Part shown: piece by piece, positions 223-9,347 of the stretch
Position numbering within the stretch: the first letter of the stretch is position 1
How the letters are laid out: each line of letters starts with the position of its first letter
NCBI RefSeq assembly: GCF_002803295.2
Contig: NZ_PGGB02000016.1
Location: forward strand, 1 to 16,844
DNA from: Caedibacter taeniospiralis
GTDB lineage: Bacteria > Pseudomonadota > Gammaproteobacteria > Francisellales > Francisellaceae
Direction: 5' to 3'
DNA: 16,844 nt
Notes under the pieces: generated by a model
The model's database searches: none
The model's input: the letters and a program-made list of their open reading frames with translations, nothing else
What the model was told of the DNA's origin: nothing
Position numbers and translations under genes: made by a program

Positions 223-1858
<1,636 letters not shown>

Positions 1859-2543: not shown

Positions 2544-2566
2544 TTTATTATAGAGTAATGACCAAG
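2535..2566 (+). other. 5' half of the 23S processing stem
   Basis: ctttaacaatttattatagagtaatgaccaag pairs over all 32 nt with 6617-6648: 28 Watson-Crick pairs and 4 G-U pairs. Confidence 0.8.
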
Positions 2567-2726
2567 AGAATAAGCGCAAACGGCGGATGCCTTGGCAGTC
2601 AGAGGCGAGGAAAGACGTGATAGCCTGCGAAAAGCTTCGGGGAGCTGGCAAATAAGCATTGATCCGAAGATATCTGAATGGGGGAACCCACCTCACTCAT
2701 AAAGTGCTCAGCACTTTATTCATTTC

Positions 2727-2759
2727 GAGAAACTAGAGATTGGAAACTAGAAACTAGAG
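2727..2759 (+). repeat. Orphan one-armed heptamer tract inside an expanded 23S helix 9 region (expansion ~2691-2769)
   Basis: gagaaactagagattggaaactagaaactagag has no complementary arm nearby. It sits between cctcactc (2691-2698) and gagtgag (2757-2763). About 95 nt are extra relative to E. coli here. Confidence 0.7.
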
Positions 2760-2834
2760 TGAGTAGAGGGTGTAATTTGTGCATGAATGAGTATTTTAAG
2801 AGTGGGGTATCACTGACGTAAGTTAAGTGAGGCG

Positions 2835-2865
<31 letters not shown>

Positions 2866-3197
2866 TAGGAAAAGAAATCAACCGAGATTCCCTAAGTAGC
2901 GGCGAGCGAAGGGGGAAGAGCCTGGTATACTTTAGCATGTGAGTTAGTCGAACATTCTGGGAAGGATGACCATAGCAGGTGATAGTCCTGTAGACGAAAG
3001 CTTGGATGTGGAACTAGGTATACGAATAAGTAGGGCGGGACACGAGAAATCCTGTTTGAAGAAGGGGGGACCATCCTCCAAGGCTAAATACTACTGACTG
3101 ACCGATAGTGAACCAGTACCGTGAGGGAAAGGCGAAAAGAACCCCGATGAGGGGAGTGAAATAGAACCTGAAACCGTTTGCGTACAAGCAGTCAGAG

Positions 3198-3342
3198 CTA
3201 GAAACTAGAGACTAGAAACTAGAGACTAGAGATTAGGGGTTGAAGCGCTTCGCGATGATTAATTTACAAAAATAAATCATCTTGCAAAGCAAGATACGAC
3301 TCCTGGTTTCTAGTCTCTAGTTTCTAGTTTCTAGGAGACTAG
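3198..3342 (+). other. 23S intervening sequence at helix 25 (E. coli ~545): heptamer arms plus conserved core
   Basis: Insert lies between gcagtcagag and tgatggcgtaccttttgtataatggg. Left arm is ctagaaa ctagaga ctagaaa ctagaga ctagaga. The core starts ttaggggttgaagcgcttcgcgatgatt. Right arm is tttctag tctctag tttctag tttctag. Confidence 0.88.
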
Positions 3343-3762
3343 TGATGGCGTACCTTTTGTATAATGGGTCAGCGAGTTACTTTTAGTGGCGAGGATAACT
3401 GAATAAGGGATCCGTAGCGAAAGCGAGTTTTAATAGAGCGGACAGTCGCTAGGAGTAGACCCGAAACCGACGCGATCTATCCATGACCAGGTTGAAGGTT
3501 GGGTAACACCAACTGGAGGACCGAACCCGGTAATGTTGCAAAATTATGGGATGAGTTGTGGATCGGAGTGAAAGGCTAATCAAGCGCGGAGATAGCTGGT
3601 TCTCCCCGAAAACTATTTAGGTAGTGCCTTGTGAATGACTCGTTGGGGTAAAGCACTGTTTCGACTAGGGGGATTTTGCGATCTTACCGACTCGATGCAA
3701 ACTTAGAATACGACGAAGTTGAATCACGGGAGACACACGGCGGGTGCTAAGGTCCGTCGTGG

Positions 3763-3800
<38 letters not shown>

Positions 3801-3835
3801 GTTATCGCTAAGTGGGAAACGATGTGGGAAGGCAT

Positions 3836-3899
<64 letters not shown>

Positions 3900-3954
3900 G
3901 AGTCGGCCTGCGCGAAAGATTTAACGGGGCTAAGCGATACACCGAAGCTGCGGG

Positions 3955-4389
3955 ACTAGAGACTAGAGACTAGAAACTGGAGACTAGAGGAGATAAGATG
4001 CCGTATCACAATTTATCAGTATATCAGAAGGCATATCAGTTAGCGCTGGAGCTACACGTGGAGAGTATGAAGTGGCCGCGGATAGAACAGTGTGAGATTG
4101 GGAGTCAATTAAGGCGAGCGAGCAAATCCATATGTGCGAACATAGCGGAAGGGATGGGCAAGCAAGCGAGTGAAAAGGAAGTAAGAAGGTTTGTTCAGAT
4201 AGCGATAGGCTCTTGCGATGAATGCCGGGTGTGGCTGGATTTTGCAAGGGACTTAGGGTATATCGATCAGGAGAGTCATAGGGGCTACGATGAGAGGTAT
4301 TGCGAAGTTGGGCGAATGTTAAGAGGTATACAGAGAAGATATAGCTGATGTCTATTCTAGTATCTAGTTTCTAGTATCTAGTTTCTAGT
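3955..4389 (+). other. 23S intervening sequence at helix 45 (E. coli ~1170) carrying an ORF
   Basis: Insert lies between caccgaagctgcgg and ggtaggggagcgttctgtaagc. Left arm is actagag actagag actagaa actggag actagag. Right arm is ttctag tatctag tttctag tatctag tttctag. Confidence 0.9.
3998..4348 (+). CDS. Four-helix-bundle protein of the '23S rRNA intervening sequence protein' family (misnamed S23 ribosomal protein; Avd-like fold)
   Basis: Intact 116-aa ORF with SD gaggag 5 nt upstream of the ATG. Motifs Y..A..L......K.P....IG.QL.R.A.SI.ANIAEG and E....L....GYI are typical of this family. Its position in the helix 45 IVS matches known Leptospira/Coxiella cases. Confidence 0.85.
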   Translation: MPYHNLSVYQKAYQLALELHVESMKWPRIEQCEIGSQLRRASKSICANIAEGMGKQASEKEVRRFVQIAIGSCDECRVWLDFARDLGYIDQESHRGYDERYCEVGRMLRGIQRRYS

Positions 4390-4942
4390 CGGTAGGGGAG
4401 CGTTCTGTAAGCTTATGAAGGTGCATTGAGAAGTGTGCTGGAGGTATCAGAAGTGCGAATGCTGACATGAGTAACGATAAATAAGTGAGATTCTTATTGG
4501 CCGAAAACCCAAGGTTTCCTACGCAATGTTAATCAACGTAGGGTAAGTCGGCGCCTAAGGCGAATCCGAAGGGAGTAGTCGATGGGAAACAGGTTAATAT
4601 TCCTGTACCGATGGTAGTTGCGATGGAGAGACGGAGAAAGCTAGGTCTGCCTGGCGGATGGTAGTCCAGGTGAAAGCGTGTAGGTAGTGCACTTAGGCAA
4701 ATCCGGGTGTATGATGATCTGAGGCGTGAGAGGGAACAGGGCTCTACGGGGTTCTGCCAAGAGATTGATGCTCGGCTTCCAGGAAAAGCTTCTAAGCATA
4801 AATTACCATTGACCGTACTGTAAACCGACACTGGTGGGTGGGTAGAGAATACCAAGGCGATGAGAGAACCCAGGTGAAGGAACTAGGCAAAATGACACCG
4901 TAACTTCGGGAGAAGGTGTGCCTCATTAGGGTGAAGGACTTG

Positions 4943-5042
4943 CCTGACCACTAAATTCTATGATGGATGAAAGCTGTTGAGAGTTGTAGAGATAGACAAT
5001 TTGTTGATAGCCTGTTGTAGGACGTGGAATTTAGTGGTCAGG
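4943..5042 (+). other. Expansion hairpin in 23S helix 63 with no heptamers
   Basis: 16-nt perfect inverted repeat cctgaccactaaattc (4943-4958) / gaatttagtggtcagg (5027-5042). The segment is absent from the corresponding E. coli region. Confidence 0.7.
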
Positions 5043-5182
5043 TGAACGTCTGGAGCGTGAAGAGGTTGCAAATACCAGGTGGCTGCGACTGTTTACTAAA
5101 AACACAGCACTCTGCGAACTCGGAAGAGGAAGTATAGGGTGTGACGCCTGCCCGGTGCTGGAAGGTTAATTGAAGGGGTTAT

Positions 5183-5483
5183 CCTACCACTTAATTATTT
5201 TGGAGTTTGATATGTATTGTGTATACGTGATTTATTCGAAAGAATTAGATAGTTTTTACTTGTGGGTTATAGTGAAAACCTAAGGAAAAGGATTGATTCG
5301 CATAAGTCGGGTAGAAGTAGATATACAAGCCGAACGAGAGATTGGATTCTTGTCTACTACGAAGCTTACGCAAGTGAAAAGCTTGCTAGGTTAAGAGAAG
5401 CTAAATTAAAGCGAGCGAATCGAATGAGGAGTTTGTTGTATAAAGGCTTAAGAGAAGAAATATCAGAGTAATTAAGTGGTAGG
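5183..5483 (+). other. 23S insertion at the helix 68 tip (E. coli ~1870) bounded by a 15-bp stem and carrying a GIY-YIG ORF
   Basis: ggggttat | cctaccacttaatta ... taattaagtggtagg | agaagctctggatcgaagcccc. In E. coli the same hairpin is closed by gcgcaagc. The inverted repeats are 5183-5197 and 5469-5483. Confidence 0.85.
5212..5471 (+). pseudogene. Small GIY-YIG (URI-domain, YhbQ/COG2827-like) nuclease, frameshifted
   Basis: ATG at 5212 with ggag 6 nt upstream encodes MYCVYVIYSKELDSFY and stops at 5281. The rest (GYSENLRKRIDSHKSGRSRYTSRTRDWILVYYEAY...) is in another frame (5262-5471). One extra T in the T5 run at 5253-5257 would give a continuous 87-aa ORF. Confidence 0.8.
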
Positions 5484-5506
5484 AGAAGCTCTGGATCGAA
5501 GCCCCA

Positions 5507-5588
<82 letters not shown>

Positions 5589-6007
5589 CGATGGCCACAC
5601 TGTCTCCATCTGGGACTCAGTGAAATTGAAATCGCTGTGAAGATGCAGCGTACCCGCGGTTAGACGGAAAGACCCCGTGAACCTTTACTATAGCTTTGCA
5701 CTGGACTTTGAGAATATTTGTGTAGGATAGGTGGGAGACTAAGAGATTCGTACGCTAGTATGGAAGGAGTCGACGTTGAAATACCACCCTGATATTTTTG
5801 GAGTTCTAACTCAGACGAGAGTCGAGGACAGTGTATGGTGGGTAGTTTGACTGGGGCGGTCTCCTCCTAAAGAGTAACGGAGGAGTACGAAGGTGCACTC
5901 GGCGCGGTCGGAAATCGCGCCAAGAGTATAAAGGCAAAAGTGCGCTTAACTGAGAGAGTGACGGCTCGATCAGGTACGAAAGTAGGTCTTAGTGATCCGG
6001 TGGTTCT

Positions 6008-6063
<56 letters not shown>

Positions 6064-6089
6064 TCCTCCCAAGAGTTCATATCGACGGA

Positions 6090-6170
<81 letters not shown>

Positions 6171-6338
6171 TGGTACGCGAGCTGGGTTTAGAACGTCGTG
6201 AGACAGTTCGGTCCCTATCTGCCGTGGGCGTAGGAGATTTGAGAGGGTTTGTTCCTAGTACGAGAGGACCGGAATGAACGAACCGCTGGTGTTTGGGTTG
6301 TCTCGCCAGAGGCATAGCCCAGTAGCTACGTTCGGAAT

Positions 6339-6371
<33 letters not shown>

Positions 6372-6394
6372 AGCCTCAAGATGAGATCTCCCGT

Positions 6395-6526
6395 CTAGAG
6401 ACTAGAAACTAGAGACTAGAAACTAGGAGTTGAGTCTTGCTTTGCAAGATGGGTTGTTTTTTATAAATCAATTCATCGCGAAGCGATTCAAGCTCTAGTT
6501 TCTAGTCTCTAGTTTCTAGTCTCTAG
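6395..6526 (+). other. 23S intervening sequence at helix 98 (E. coli ~2795): heptamer arms plus conserved core
   Basis: Insert lies between gatgagatctcccgt and cttaagggttgttgaagactacgacgttgatagg. 6395-6426 is the exact reverse complement of 6495-6526 (32 bp). Confidence 0.9.
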
Positions 6527-6616
6527 CTTAAGGGTTGTTGAAGACTACGACGTTGATAGGCTGGCTGTAGAAGTGCAGTAATGTATGAAGCTAACCAGTA
6601 CTAATTGCCCGAGAGA

Positions 6617-6648
6617 CTTGGTTATTACTCTATGATAGATTGTTAGAG
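6617..6648 (+). other. 3' half of the 23S processing stem
   Basis: cttggttattactctatgatagattgttagag is complementary to 2535-2566. Confidence 0.8.
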
Positions 6649-6664: not shown

Positions 6665-6782
6665 TACCTGATGAAAATAGCGACTGTGAACCACCTGATT
6701 CCATTCCGAACTCAGAAGTGAAAACAGTTAGCGTCGATGATAGTGTGGCATTCGCCATGTGAAAGTAGAACATCATCAGGTA
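6665..6782 (+). rRNA. rrf: 5S ribosomal RNA
   Basis: Helix I tacctgatga/tcatcaggta. Conserved ccgaactcagaagtgaaa and gtagtgtgg-like blocks. Confidence 0.93.
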
Positions 6783-7650: not shown

Positions 7651-7959
7651 ATGTCGGATATTCAAATCCATTTGGATTCTAAACAAGTCGGATTGGAGAA
7701 GTATTTACCGTTTGTCAAACAAGGTGCTTTAATGACGAGCATTGATCAGCCATTAAAGTTTGGTGAGGAGCACAGGCTAACGGTTAAATTGCCAGAGTTA
7801 AAGCAGGAGATTTCCTGTGATGTGCGTGTTGTCTGGATAAGCGGTGATGGTCATCAGGAAAAGAAAAAATATGGGCTTCAGTTTTTGGGCGATGAAGGGT
7901 TTGAACTAAATCAGGTATTAGAAAATTATCTGGTTGGGTTGCTAAAACATAATGAATAG
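7651..7959 (+). CDS. pilZ: PilZ-domain protein (type IV pilus assembly PilZ-like)
   Basis: 102 aa, start coupled to the dedA stop (taacatg). Resembles Pseudomonas PilZ: YLPFVKQGAL (YMPFI..GGLF), VRVVWIS, YGLQF, LENYLVG. Confidence 0.65.
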   Translation: MSDIQIHLDSKQVGLEKYLPFVKQGALMTSIDQPLKFGEEHRLTVKLPELKQEISCDVRVVWISGDGHQEKKKYGLQFLGDEGFELNQVLENYLVGLLKHNE

Positions 7960-7988: not shown

Positions 7989-9347
7989 ATGGCAAAAGCG
8001 AAAACAAATTATGTTTGTCAATCCTGTGGGGCGGTGTCACCAAAATGGCAGGGTCAGTGCTCTGATTGCCTCGAGTGGAATACTTTGATTGAAACCCAGC
8101 TCAATCTCATAAAGTCGCAAAGCACTAAGGTTGGTTATGCAGCGGTGGAGGCGAAAGTCCAAAGGCTCAATGAGGTTTCATTAGCTGAATATCCCCGCAT
8201 TCACTCTCCTTTTGATGAATTTGATCGAGTGATGGGAGGCGGTATTGTGCCAGGTTCCGTCACTCTTATCGGTGGAGATCCAGGGATAGGTAAGTCTTCA
8301 ATTTTATTGCAGATTATGACGGTTCTATCTTTAAAATACAGTGCGCTTTACATTACAGGCGAGGAATCACTAGAGCAGGTGGCATTAAGGGCCAGGCGAA
8401 TGCAGTTGCCAAATGAACATCTTTTACTAATGAGTGAAACCAATGTTGGCGCAATATGCAGGTATATTGAAACCCATCGCCCGCAACTTGTCGTGGTTGA
8501 CTCCATTCAAACGATGCAAATCGAAGATTTACAATCTGCGCCAGGCGGTGTGGCACAAGTTAGAGAATCTGCAAGTTTATTGACGCAAACAGCAAAGCAT
8601 TTAAACTGTGCAGTATTTCTAGTAGGACATGTCACTAAATCTGGTGAAGTGGCAGGACCTCGCGTCCTTGAACATATTGTTGATAGTGTGGTCTTTATCG
8701 AAGGACAGACCGATGGGCGCTATCGGATGGTCAGAGCAATGAAAAATCGCTTTGGAGCGGTGAATGAGCTGGGTGTGTTTGCGATGACGGATAAGGGCAT
8801 GCGTGAAATAAAAAACCCTTCTGCTATTTTTTTGAATCGCGCCGAAGATGATATTTCTGGGAGTGTGATCATTGCTATATGGGAGGGTACAAGACCCATT
8901 CTTGTGGAAGTTCAGGCGTTAGTCAGTGAAAATGGATATGGTCAGCCCAGACGTTTGGCACTTGGTTTGGATCCAAATCGTGTGTCTATGCTTTTAGCAA
9001 TTATGCAGCGTCATTTAAGTGTGCAACTTGGAAATTATGATGTTTTTATCAACATCGTAGGCGGGATTAAGGTCAATGAAACCAGCATTGATTTGGCTAT
9101 TATTGCAGTTATCCTGTCAAGTCTATATAACCGACCGATTGCAAAAGACTGGATTATTGTGGGTGAGGTTGGTTTATCTGGTGAAATTCGTCCAGTGCCT
9201 TACGGTCAAGAGCGATTGCTCGAGGCGCAAAAGCATGGCTTCAAACAGGCGATCGTGCCTTACAGTAATTTACCGAAAAAAGATATTGGGATGAAGGTTC
9301 ATGCGATTAAAAAGCTTAATGAATTAAAAGAAATGATTGCACATTAG
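7989..9347 (+). CDS. radA: DNA repair protein RadA/Sms
   Basis: N-terminal zinc finger YVCQSCG...CSDC, Walker A GGDPGIGKSS, the RadA motif KNRFG, and a Lon-protease-like C-terminal domain. 452 aa. Confidence 0.95.
   Translation: MAKAKTNYVCQSCGAVSPKWQGQCSDCLEWNTLIETQLNLIKSQSTKVGYAAVEAKVQRLNEVSLAEYPRIHSPFDEFDRVMGGGIVPGSVTLIGGDPGIGKSSILLQIMTVLSLKYSALYITGEESLEQVALRARRMQLPNEHLLLMSETNVGAICRYIETHRPQLVVVDSIQTMQIEDLQSAPGGVAQVRESASLLTQTAKHLNCAVFLVGHVTKSGEVAGPRVLEHIVDSVVFIEGQTDGRYRMVRAMKNRFGAVNELGVFAMTDKGMREIKNPSAIFLNRAEDDISGSVIIAIWEGTRPILVEVQALVSENGYGQPRRLALGLDPNRVSMLLAIMQRHLSVQLGNYDVFINIVGGIKVNETSIDLAIIAVILSSLYNRPIAKDWIIVGEVGLSGEIRPVPYGQERLLEAQKHGFKQAIVPYSNLPKKDIGMKVHAIKKLNELKEMIAH

Follow-up and report, generated by a model that had tools for sequence, protein, structure and literature searches.

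Frameshifted GIY-YIG nuclease cassette at the tip of 23S rRNA helix 68 in Caedibacter taeniospiralis, and its relatives in bacterial stable-RNA genes

INTRODUCTION

The classical intervening sequences (IVSs) at helices 25 and 45 (H25 and H45) of 23S ribosomal RNA (rRNA) are excised by RNase III without religation of the flanking rRNA, and that at H45 of Coxiella burnetii, which is removed by this enzyme, carries an open reading frame (ORF) (PMC4990558). A separate line of work has found ORFs for GIY-YIG proteins in non-intron rRNA insertions of bacteria of the candidate phyla radiation (CPR), 30 in all (15 in 16S and 15 in 23S), sparse, with no preferred site and described as being 'outside the context of homing' (PMC11270868, Tsurumaki et al. 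2024); that paper cites Brown et al. 2015 for their first sighting. Here we consider a locus where the two themes meet, a ~300-nt cassette at the tip of helix 68 (H68) of 23S rRNA in Caedibacter taeniospiralis, an obligate gammaproteobacterial 'killer' endosymbiont of Paramecium. Its source contig of 16,844 nt, all of which was analyzed and which is termed the window below, carries one complete rrn operon. The cassette is a long RNA hairpin enclosing a gene for a small GIY-YIG nuclease that has been put out of frame, and we conclude that this copy was inactivated recently and belongs to a family of GIY-YIG hairpin cassettes, widespread, conserved and so far all but undescribed, at helix tips of stable-RNA genes. 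A literature search found nothing on H68 as an IVS site, on GIY-YIG IVSs outside CPR bacteria or on 23S IVSs of Caedibacter, and nothing on conserved arms, selection signatures, or RNase P RNA and tRNA-leader contexts for such elements.

A STEM-BOUNDED CASSETTE IN HELIX 68

At 4,066 nt the 23S gene of the window is longer than that of E. coli (~2900 nt), and aligning the two reveals six insertions (Table 1). The one of concern here (5182-5484) takes the place of the apical GCGCAAGC mini-hairpin of H68, with MAFFT placing a 295-nt insertion (5184-5478) after E. coli position 1865, and it lies ~40 nt upstream of an intact H69. Its ends form a perfect 15-bp inverted repeat (CCTACCACTTAATTA at 5183-5197 and TAATTAAGTGGTAGG at 5469-5483) which becomes 16 bp once T5182-A5484 is added and, with G.U allowed, a stem of 22 consecutive pairs (5182-5203 with 5463-5484) that in the predicted fold stacks on H68 via the native A/GA internal loop. 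The fold z-score of the region is -6.65 and none of 100 shuffles folds equally well. Only ~45 nt of the insert are non-coding, the remainder being filled by an ORF of 85 codons whose TAA stop (5469-5471) opens the 3′ arm. Scanning 5100-5560 against Rfam with cmscan gave no match in the insert to a group I or II intron or to any other family, even at E <= 10, and group I and II intron families are absent from the whole window at gathering score. No sigma-70-like promoter was found upstream of the ATG at 5212, so that transcription of the ORF takes place within pre-23S.

Two features of an IVS can be looked for in sequence: replacement of the apical loop of a peripheral helix, seen here in a register identical in 25 carriers, and a long terminal duplex conserved as RNA, seen here as the 22-bp stem with the covariation considered below. 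On that footing the cassette is an IVS in its architecture. The first-pass annotation of this DNA had proposed as much, with the H68 terminal loop replaced ~40 nt upstream of H69 by an insert bounded by a perfect 15-bp inverted repeat and holding no ribozyme, and all of these structural points stand.

SELECTION ON THE STEM AND A SHARED ARM MOTIF

Is the stem a feature of the DNA or of the RNA? Across 20 distinct carriers, aligned without gaps over a 31-pair helix, 92.3% of cells are paired compared with 38-53% for slid partners, 24 of the 31 pairs have changed on both sides, and the observed values are reached by none of 500 shuffles. The non-Watson-Crick cells in the arms comprise 27 G.U and a single A.C, an excess which indicates that pairing matters in the rRNA-sense transcript and which would be unexpected for a purely DNA-level palindrome. 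Flank positions T10, T11 and A12 are invariant in the 20 carriers. Among the window and two other carriers, L002 and L003, stem and flanks are 100% conserved while the synonymous sites of the ORF are near saturation (synonymous divergence, dS, 1.16), which argues that RNA structure is under selection. To judge from these substitutions, selection on the stem acts at the level of RNA, in the rRNA-sense strand.

Whatever the site in which they are found, the 5′ arms of the cassettes begin with a C-rich stretch, 5′-(T/C)CCC(G/C)CAC(C/T), followed by an A/T-rich one, with a common polarity; CC.{1,4}CAC occurs in 74% of 61 arms versus 17% of shuffles. The window arm, CCTACCAC…, conforms, its 5′ arm holding the motif as CC..CCAC. 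That motif and polarity are shared at unrelated sites implies that the arms travel with the ORF, much as terminal inverted repeats (TIRs) do.

A MINIMAL GIY-YIG PROTEIN

When its frame is repaired, the 85-aa window protein matches Pfam PF01541 with E 2.7e-16 (60.1 bits against a cut-off of 22.6), the shifted-frame piece alone does so with E 2.4e-9, and all 26 family members match the profile. The GIY-YIG catalytic set (Y5, Y16, G18, R26, H30 and E50) is invariant in the 26 sequences. An AlphaFold2 model (pLDDT 85.4) has the topology E-E-H-E-H-H, with the three-stranded sheet and helices of a GIY-YIG fold, and Foldseek with this model retrieved 1zg2, Slx1 (7cq3, TM 0.66) and, more weakly, the I-TevI catalytic domain. 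The solved proteins closest in sequence are UPF0213 BH0048 (1ZG2, E 8.3e-5) and EF2693 (1YWL, E 8.1e-4). With identity to UPF0213/YhbQ and Slx1-type proteins of just 29-35%, the cassette proteins appear to be a sister clade of UPF0213, rather than proven members of that subfamily. They are of the UPF0213/Slx1-like minimal kind, a stand-alone domain of ~80-100 aa with UPF0213 as its nearest relative, and prokaryotic Slx1-like proteins likewise consist of a minimal GIY-YIG domain (PMC1564403). They are not of the I-TevI type: at 85 aa there is no extra domain, and the match to TIGR01453 scores 19.7 bits against a cut-off of 56.05.

An exhaustive HMMER search yielded 3,889 cluster representatives with E <= 1e-3, of which 114 remain when the limit is E <= 1e-10; their length is mostly 80-110 aa. 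For those pairs with measurable dS (about 1.2-1.4, the others being saturated) the ratio of non-synonymous to synonymous divergence (dN/dS) is 0.10-0.16. By this measure the protein is under purifying selection, and, except in Caedibacter, a conserved and catalytically complete GIY-YIG nuclease is predicted.

THE FRAMESHIFT IN THE CAEDIBACTER COPY

Between the Tyr and Gly of its YIG motif the window ORF has a 2-nt insertion, TTG-TG-GGT, at ~5261-5264. It was called by comparison with two intact 85-aa orthologues at the same site and within an identical stem, P0001 on L002 (GCA_052030555.1; 84% identity) and P0003 on L003 (from a marine metagenome; 76% identity). Translation in frame 1 ends at the stop codon 5281-5283, the other 69 codons are read in a different frame, and Y16 is split from G18 of the catalytic set. 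Programmed frameshifting was considered and rejected, as a slippery site is absent and every orthologue is single-frame. An assembly or sequencing artefact was also rejected: a second assembly (GCA_013573075.1, L153) has an identical H68 element, TG insertion and frameshift included, and the lesion is therefore real. Since the ORF bears no other defect, its inactivation is recent. On the sequence the local C. taeniospiralis product is not functional and the ORF is a pseudogene, and a frameshifted copy cannot itself be driving spread at present.

What the first-pass annotation had described as a small GIY-YIG ORF with its own ggag Shine-Dalgarno sequence is thus there, down to the GGAG at 5202-5205, and it is not intact; the YhbQ-like assignment agrees with both profile and structure searches, and the I-TevI-type DNA-binding tail that it reported as lacking is indeed lacking.

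Elsewhere the two C. taeniospiralis assemblies are not the same: differences fall in the internal transcribed spacer, the H25 IVS and a cluster at 5700-6100. The last comprises 66 of the 155 differences, packed into 400 nt of 23S domain V, with the gene identical over its remainder, and could reflect rrn copy heterogeneity, recombination or chimeric assembly.

THE HELIX-68 FAMILY

One genome for each of 185,579 species was scanned with the pattern GGAAKGTTAA-N{320,350}-GTAAACGGCGGCC, which specifies rRNA flanks and enlarged spacing alone and covers inserts giving that spacing, with other sizes, such as ORF-less remnants, falling outside it. This length-only scan returned 22 loci, and every one of them holds a same-strand GIY-YIG ORF in a stem of the same register. 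Three further carriers are L002, L003 and L006, the last a high-GC bacterium found via its protein. Carriers total ~20 species in at least eight phyla. Those in the Gammaproteobacteria are Methylomicrobium sp. wino1 (in two rrn copies), Methyloprofundus, the Gigantopelta methanotrophic symbiont, Thiosymbion, Cellvibrionales, Marinicella and a Pasteurellaceae isolate; those in the Bacillota are Lagierella massiliensis (two copies) and one metagenome-assembled genome; and the others belong to Synergistota, Planctomycetota, SAR324, Desulfobacteraceae (Desulfobacterota), Saccharicenans (Acidobacteriota) and the CPR group Peribacteria (L029). In E. coli none of 5,426 genomes has the H68 insert. The first-pass view of the locus is kept for its structural claims, with the qualification that the locus is one member of a large family and not a one-off oddity.

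The two cassettes of L. massiliensis, L010 and L011, are identical but for a patch of ~30 nt with substitutions and a 3-nt deletion that removes the YIGYS motif from one of them, giving an active-type and an inactive copy in one genome. The 23S of L006 has an extra insertion of 485 nt (4331-4815), which at E. coli ~1928 follows shortly upon H69 and is near known intron sites; at gathering score this insertion matches no Rfam family.

RELATIVES IN OTHER STABLE-RNA GENES

Close homologues of the cassette protein are encoded at the tip of 23S H25 (P0009 and P0007), at H98 (P0005), and 9-22 nt upstream of tRNA genes (P0004 and P0008). A clade-specific DNA pattern, M[FY]YVY…YYEA, occurs at >=120 metagenomic loci, with 112 near-intact ORFs among the matches listed, to which the next counts refer. 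Fourteen are inside rRNA genes, at 23S ~270, ~540 (H25), ~650, ~1170 (H45) and ~1860 (H68) and at 16S 69-101 (h6). Another 31 (~28%) are within 100 nt of a tRNA gene, and in nearly all of these the tRNA gene starts, in the same orientation, 3-27 nt past the stop; the tRNAs are Trp, Ser, Cys, Glu, Pro and others, and examples include L004 and L007 (Table 1) and the metagenomic L042, L044, L059 and L107. A further 64 (~57%) are outside rRNA genes and >100 nt from any tRNA gene. In all of the rRNA-embedded copies a stem of 17-29 bp begins ~35-40 nt ahead of the ATG, and such flanking stems are present in half of the 64 copies elsewhere and lacking in the tRNA-adjacent ones, for which co-transcription with the tRNA and RNase P-defined 3′ ends are suggested.

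At 20 of the loci in other contexts cmscan found no known RNA at gathering score. From reading of flanks, at least three of the copies elsewhere are in or abut the gene for RNase P RNA. One (L114) is inside a full-length class-A RNase P RNA, in the P12 region, and two (L061 and L138) are directly 5′ of a conserved GGAGGAAAGTCC, which is the tip of P3; the RNase P matches for these two score 54.9 bits, under the Rfam gathering score of 100. Comparison of the sequences thus shows related cassettes with related arms at 23S ~270, H25, H45 and H98, in 16S h6, in P3 and P12 of RNase P RNA and in intergenic DNA.

Three individual loci merit a word. L058 has two different GIY-YIG ORFs in one 23S (452-718 and 1177-1419), near E. 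coli ~268 and ~652, the first with a 21-bp stem and the second, which reaches the contig end, without a stem having been found. In L083 (ORF 252-506) the 5′ arm includes the 3′ end of tRNA-Leu (GGCACCA), and after the cassette that tRNA-Leu end recurs, first inverted and then direct, so that it looks like an insertion at a tRNA 3′ end. For the two copies in L148, transposition was rejected, as segmental duplication explains them.

THE REMAINDER OF THE OPERON AND CONTIG

The window has a second set of IVS-like insertions, in 16S h6 and in 23S H9/10, H25, H45 and H98, all five with stems of >=30 bp made of one tandem heptamer repeat (CTAGAGA/CTAGAAA and its complement). The stems in H25, H45, H98 and 16S h6 are long and perfect, as in IVSs known before. 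The common repeat indicates that at least five helix tips of one operon have been reached by a second family of stems. The insertion in H63 has no ORF, and its arms, CCTGACCACTAAAT, resemble those of GIY-YIG cassettes (that of L026 is CCTCACCACTAAAT), with 2 matches versus 0.07 expected; the resemblance, which is suggestive only, is such that the insertion may be a cassette that lost its ORF. The RadA, PilZ and Tn3-transposase products encoded in the window are exact matches to WP_100551495, WP_100551494 and WP_100551500, respectively.

Table 1. Coordinates of features in the window and, in the last five rows, of related cassettes at other loci
Feature	Coordinates	Strand	E. coli 23S position	Basis or remark
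16S rRNA gene	223-1858			rrn operon
IVS-like insertion, 16S h6	299-420			heptamer-repeat stem
Two tRNA genes				rrn operon, alongside 16S and 23S
23S rRNA gene	2560-6625	+		Rfam LSU_rRNA_bacteria, 2531 bits, full length
IVS-like insertion, H9/10	2691-2802		~131-142	heptamer-repeat stem
IVS-like insertion, H25	3200-3327		541	heptamer-repeat stem
IVS-like insertion, H45	3954-4377		1162-1170	heptamer-repeat stem
23S_rRNA_IVP ORF, 116 aa, in H45 insertion	3998-4348			PF05635, E 7e-32
H63 insertion, 100 nt	4943-5042	+	1731	no ORF
Distal H68, 5′ strand TTGAAGGGGTTA, final conserved unpaired A	5170-5181	+		E. coli alignment, fold
H68 cassette	5182-5484		1865	see text
Cassette stem, 5′ arm	5182-5203	+		5182-5197 perfect, 5198-5203 pairs with G.U; covariation
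GGAG Shine-Dalgarno	5202-5205	+		6 nt before ATG 5212, in upper stem
GIY-YIG ORF, N-terminal part MYCVYVIYSKELDSFYL	5212-5264	+		ends at the 2-nt frameshifting insertion (~5261-5264); frame stop 5281-5283
GIY-YIG ORF, remainder in shifted frame, GYSENLRKRIDSH...YYEAY...REEISE	5265-5471	+		ORF 5262-5471
Cassette stem, 3′ arm	5463-5484	+		pairs with 5′ arm
Distal H68, 3′ strand, unpaired GA then AGCTCTGGATCGAAGCCCCA	5485-5506	+		E. coli alignment, fold
IVS-like insertion, H98	6393-6526		2786-2802	heptamer-repeat stem
5S rRNA gene	6667-6781			rrn operon
PilZ gene	7651-7959			downstream of rrn operon
RadA gene	7989-9347			downstream of rrn operon
Tn3-family transposase gene, 999 aa	13326-16325			near contig end, downstream of rrn operon
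Locus of cassette inside RNase P RNA, class A, P12 region	L114:208-849			full-length RNase P RNA, 642 nt, 304 bits
Cassette at RNase P RNA P3 tip	L061:393-980	-		directly 5′ of conserved GGAGGAAAGTCC
Cassette at RNase P RNA P3 tip	L138:4122-4510	-		directly 5′ of conserved GGAGGAAAGTCC
tRNA-adjacent member	L004:4001-4350
tRNA-adjacent member	L007:4001-4329

RESIDENCE AND REPLACEMENT

The locus L026 and Methyloprofundus L024 have host 23S sequences that are 93% identical and, at the same site, cassettes that are 49% identical with different arms. The L026 contig (JAVVDS010000142.1) is 1.6 kb, of high coverage and binned as Desulfuromonadales; it is probably a mis-binned rRNA fragment. Its cassette is window-like, and the window cassette clusters with it and with that of SAR324, not with the other gammaproteobacterial cassettes. 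The H68 distribution is patchy, and degenerate copies recur (the window, L020, L021 and L010). No signal of flank co-conversion was seen at L026: its H68 flanks are identical to the flanks of L024 (the nearest host in the set) and differ from the window type. No empty H68 allele from a close relative was retrieved. As far as the sequences go, they are consistent with long residence and occasional transfer or replacement of cassettes.

HOW THE CASSETTE MAY LIVE, AND WHAT ELSE IT MIGHT BE

The reading that we favor, and regard as probable without pressing it further, is that the H68 loop holds an IVS-type mobile hairpin cassette composed of two complementary arms of 17-29 bp, a short leader and an 80-90-codon Slx1/UPF0213-like nuclease gene. 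The tip of H68 (1862-1885), which faces the L1 stalk and moves by 40-50 Å, is a sensitive target for antisense peptide nucleic acid (PNA), whose binding inhibits translation (PMC9040758); 300 nt retained at such a place would probably be harmful. RNase III would cut the long duplex and the cassette would leave pre-23S, with a 23S that is fragmented yet functional; the insertion at this mobile tip would thereby be rendered harmless. The architecture of the cassette and the Coxiella and Salmonella precedents make excision by RNase III rather likely. Either the precursor or the released RNA would serve as template for translation of the nuclease, which would cleave cassette-less DNA by recognizing structure (hairpins or cruciforms at helix-tip palindromes) or an arm motif, not a long sequence. 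For a bare catalytic domain of Slx1 lineage with many helix-tip targets, cleavage directed by structure or by arm motif is more plausible than recognition of a long sequence. Recombinational repair could then copy the cassette in, providing for upkeep across rrn copies and occasional horizontal spread, and the Caedibacter cassette would be a decaying relic with its stem kept since the rRNA still depends on it. On whether the nuclease drives the spread we are in two minds and lean slightly to doubt; patchiness, the divergent cassettes in near-identical hosts and the invariant catalytic residues speak for it.

Several observations weigh against this picture. The protein is only a catalytic domain, yet it would have to find at least 10 different targets. 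ORF GC content at third codon positions (GC3) ranges over 0.21-0.79 and tracks that of the hosts, and protein and host rRNA identities are correlated (Spearman 0.49), both of which point to inheritance that is largely vertical and long-term, not to rampant homing. Searching 50,697 phage and 72,556 plasmid records by tblastn gave only matches of ~34% identity, and the clade pattern had 0 matches in 2.9 million viral contigs; a phage or plasmid vector was rejected, no close relatives having been found in these collections. A strong Shine-Dalgarno sequence is present in about half of the H68 cassettes and missing from most of the gammaproteobacterial ones. In ~9 of the 22 H68 loci the ORF has no stop inside the cassette and ends in 23S sequence, the read-through forms being predicted to end …GEGEALDRSPGKRR, and these too are under purifying selection, so that translation from the uncut precursor fits better than translation from an RNase III-released fragment. 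Finally, the Coxiella IVS ORF is apparently untranslated and its IVS RNA is quickly degraded (PMC4990558).

A bolder version of the favored reading sees in the cassettes an unrecognized class of mobile element, a TIR-like hairpin with a minimal GIY-YIG nuclease residing in apical loops of structured-RNA genes and in tRNA 5′ leaders. It would span 23S (>=6 sites), 16S h6, RNase P RNA P3/P12 and many phyla; its members would stay silent through host processing of double-stranded RNA or of tRNA and would spread by structure- or arm-directed DNA cleavage, as an analogue of mobile introns. This we rate as possible, and below an even chance.

Must the cassette leave the RNA at all? It might be an expansion segment, an extension of H68 kept in mature ribosomes with its ORF translated from nascent pre-rRNA or never. 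The many ORFs that run through the 3′ arm to stop in downstream 23S, and so require uncut RNA, fit that idea, as do the coaxial stacking of the stem on H68 via the A/GA loop and the position of H68 on the subunit surface. The 40-50 Å movement of the tip against the L1 stalk and the inhibition by PNA make it unlikely, and perfect duplexes of 17-26 bp are a hallmark of RNase III-processed IVSs. The presence of the same cassette in RNase P RNA and in the classical IVS sites H25, H45 and 16S h6 is a further point against retention.

We would give no greater weight to the suggestion that the protein has been domesticated and serves the cell, in rDNA repair or recombination or in defense, with stable-RNA operons as strong constitutive expression sites and ordinary recombination spreading the gene. 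Strong long-term purifying selection and host-like GC3 are what it would lead one to expect, the characterized members of the Slx1/UPF0213 lineage act in repair and not in homing, and the 64 of 112 clade members among the matches listed that are outside rRNA genes and >100 nt from tRNA genes, with at least three at RNase P RNA, are also in its favor. Against it stand rarity and patchiness (~20 of 185,579 species at H68), the repeated inactivation noted above, divergent cassettes at the same site in near-identical hosts and TIR-like arms that travel with the ORF, all of them signatures of a selfish element and not of a housekeeping gene.

More doubtful still is that the window copy is inert debris, a dead relic in the degrading genome of an endosymbiont with its stem persisting by chance or through recent origin; the frameshift in the catalytic motif, found in two assemblies, and the obligate endosymbiosis of the host are countered by the 100% conservation of stem and flanks among the window, L002 and L003 at an ORF dS of 1.16, and by the want of any lesion other than the 2-nt insertion, which makes the inactivation recent. 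An ordinary group I or II intron with a homing endonuclease gene, to which the usual intron-borne state of nuclease genes in rRNA genes and the weak match to NCBIfam TIGR01453 'group I intron endonuclease' might point, can practically be dismissed given the empty intron search, the ~45 nt that are left for a ribozyme, a TIGR01453 score far under its cut-off of 56, boundaries that form a continuous helix instead of P1/P10, and the failure of the CPR GIY-YIG insertions to match any intron model (PMC11270868).

WHAT IT WOULD MEAN

If the favored reading is right, self-splicing introns and inteins are joined by a third means by which a selfish nuclease gene can reside in an essential, conserved RNA gene and do it no harm, with removal of the element handed to the host's RNase III. 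It would explain the origin of some rRNA IVSs, a long-standing question, and their recurrence at the same helix tips, and would suggest a testable role for the stand-alone GIY-YIG proteins of bacteria, a large family of obscure function. The niches added are helix 68, RNase P RNA P3/P12 and tRNA leaders. There are practical consequences too: annotation pipelines that forbid coding sequences inside rRNA genes systematically miss the ORFs, and the cassettes break rRNA assemblies and lengthen 16S and 23S amplicons. With Methylomicrobium sp. wino1, Lagierella massiliensis and the Pasteurellaceae isolate as cultured carriers, the question is directly testable.

COMPARISON WITH KNOWN SYSTEMS

In sequence and fold the nearest proteins are those of UPF0213/YhbQ and Slx1 type (1ZG2, 1YWL, 4XLG and 7CQ3), which similarly consist of the minimal domain only; the YYEAY motif and the stable-RNA-gene context of the cassette clade have not been described for UPF0213. 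The GIY-YIG (I-TevI type) and LAGLIDADG enzymes of group I introns offer the more familiar picture of a nuclease gene in a conserved rRNA gene with host function spared, and enzymes of the I-TevI type share catalytic residues with the cassette proteins. However, the cassette protein has 85 aa versus ~245 aa and is without linker or DNA-binding domain, and the cassette is at a variable helix tip, not in a conserved functional core. As it has no ribozyme, its removal, if any, must use a host RNase. T4-like phages have free-standing GIY-YIG homing endonucleases, such as SegB in the tRNA gene cluster of T4. There too a GIY-YIG gene sits beside tRNA genes, as do 31 of the 112 clade members among the matches listed; the Seg proteins, however, are larger, with DNA-binding domains, and are phage-borne, whereas the cassette clade was not found in the phage collections searched.

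Of the elements inside rRNA genes, the S23p proteins of the 23S_rRNA_IVP family (PF05635, e.g. in Coxiella, PMC4990558) provide the parallel of an ORF-bearing IVS with a ribosome-binding site, and the Coxiella ORF is decaying as the window copy is (PMC4990558). Their fold is unrelated, and while the GIY-YIG ORFs are under purifying selection, Coxiella S23p is apparently untranslated. The CPR ORFs are of the same protein family and likewise lack an intron, and one H68 carrier (L029, Peribacteria) is itself a CPR bacterium; arm architecture, the H68 site, non-CPR hosts, the link to RNase P RNA and tRNA and an analysis of selection are additions to what that study (PMC11270868) reported. The classical IVSs at H25 and H45, in Salmonella, Campylobacter, Leptospira and Coxiella, are alike in replacing an apical loop, in their near-perfect terminal duplex, in being ribozyme-free and patchy and in the possibility of an ORF. 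The Caedibacter cassette differs from them in its place at the H68 tip in domain IV and in its cargo, a nuclease rather than nothing or a four-helix-bundle protein of the 23S_rRNA_IVP kind; and its relatives, for their part, also occupy the classical sites of H25, H45 and 16S h6.

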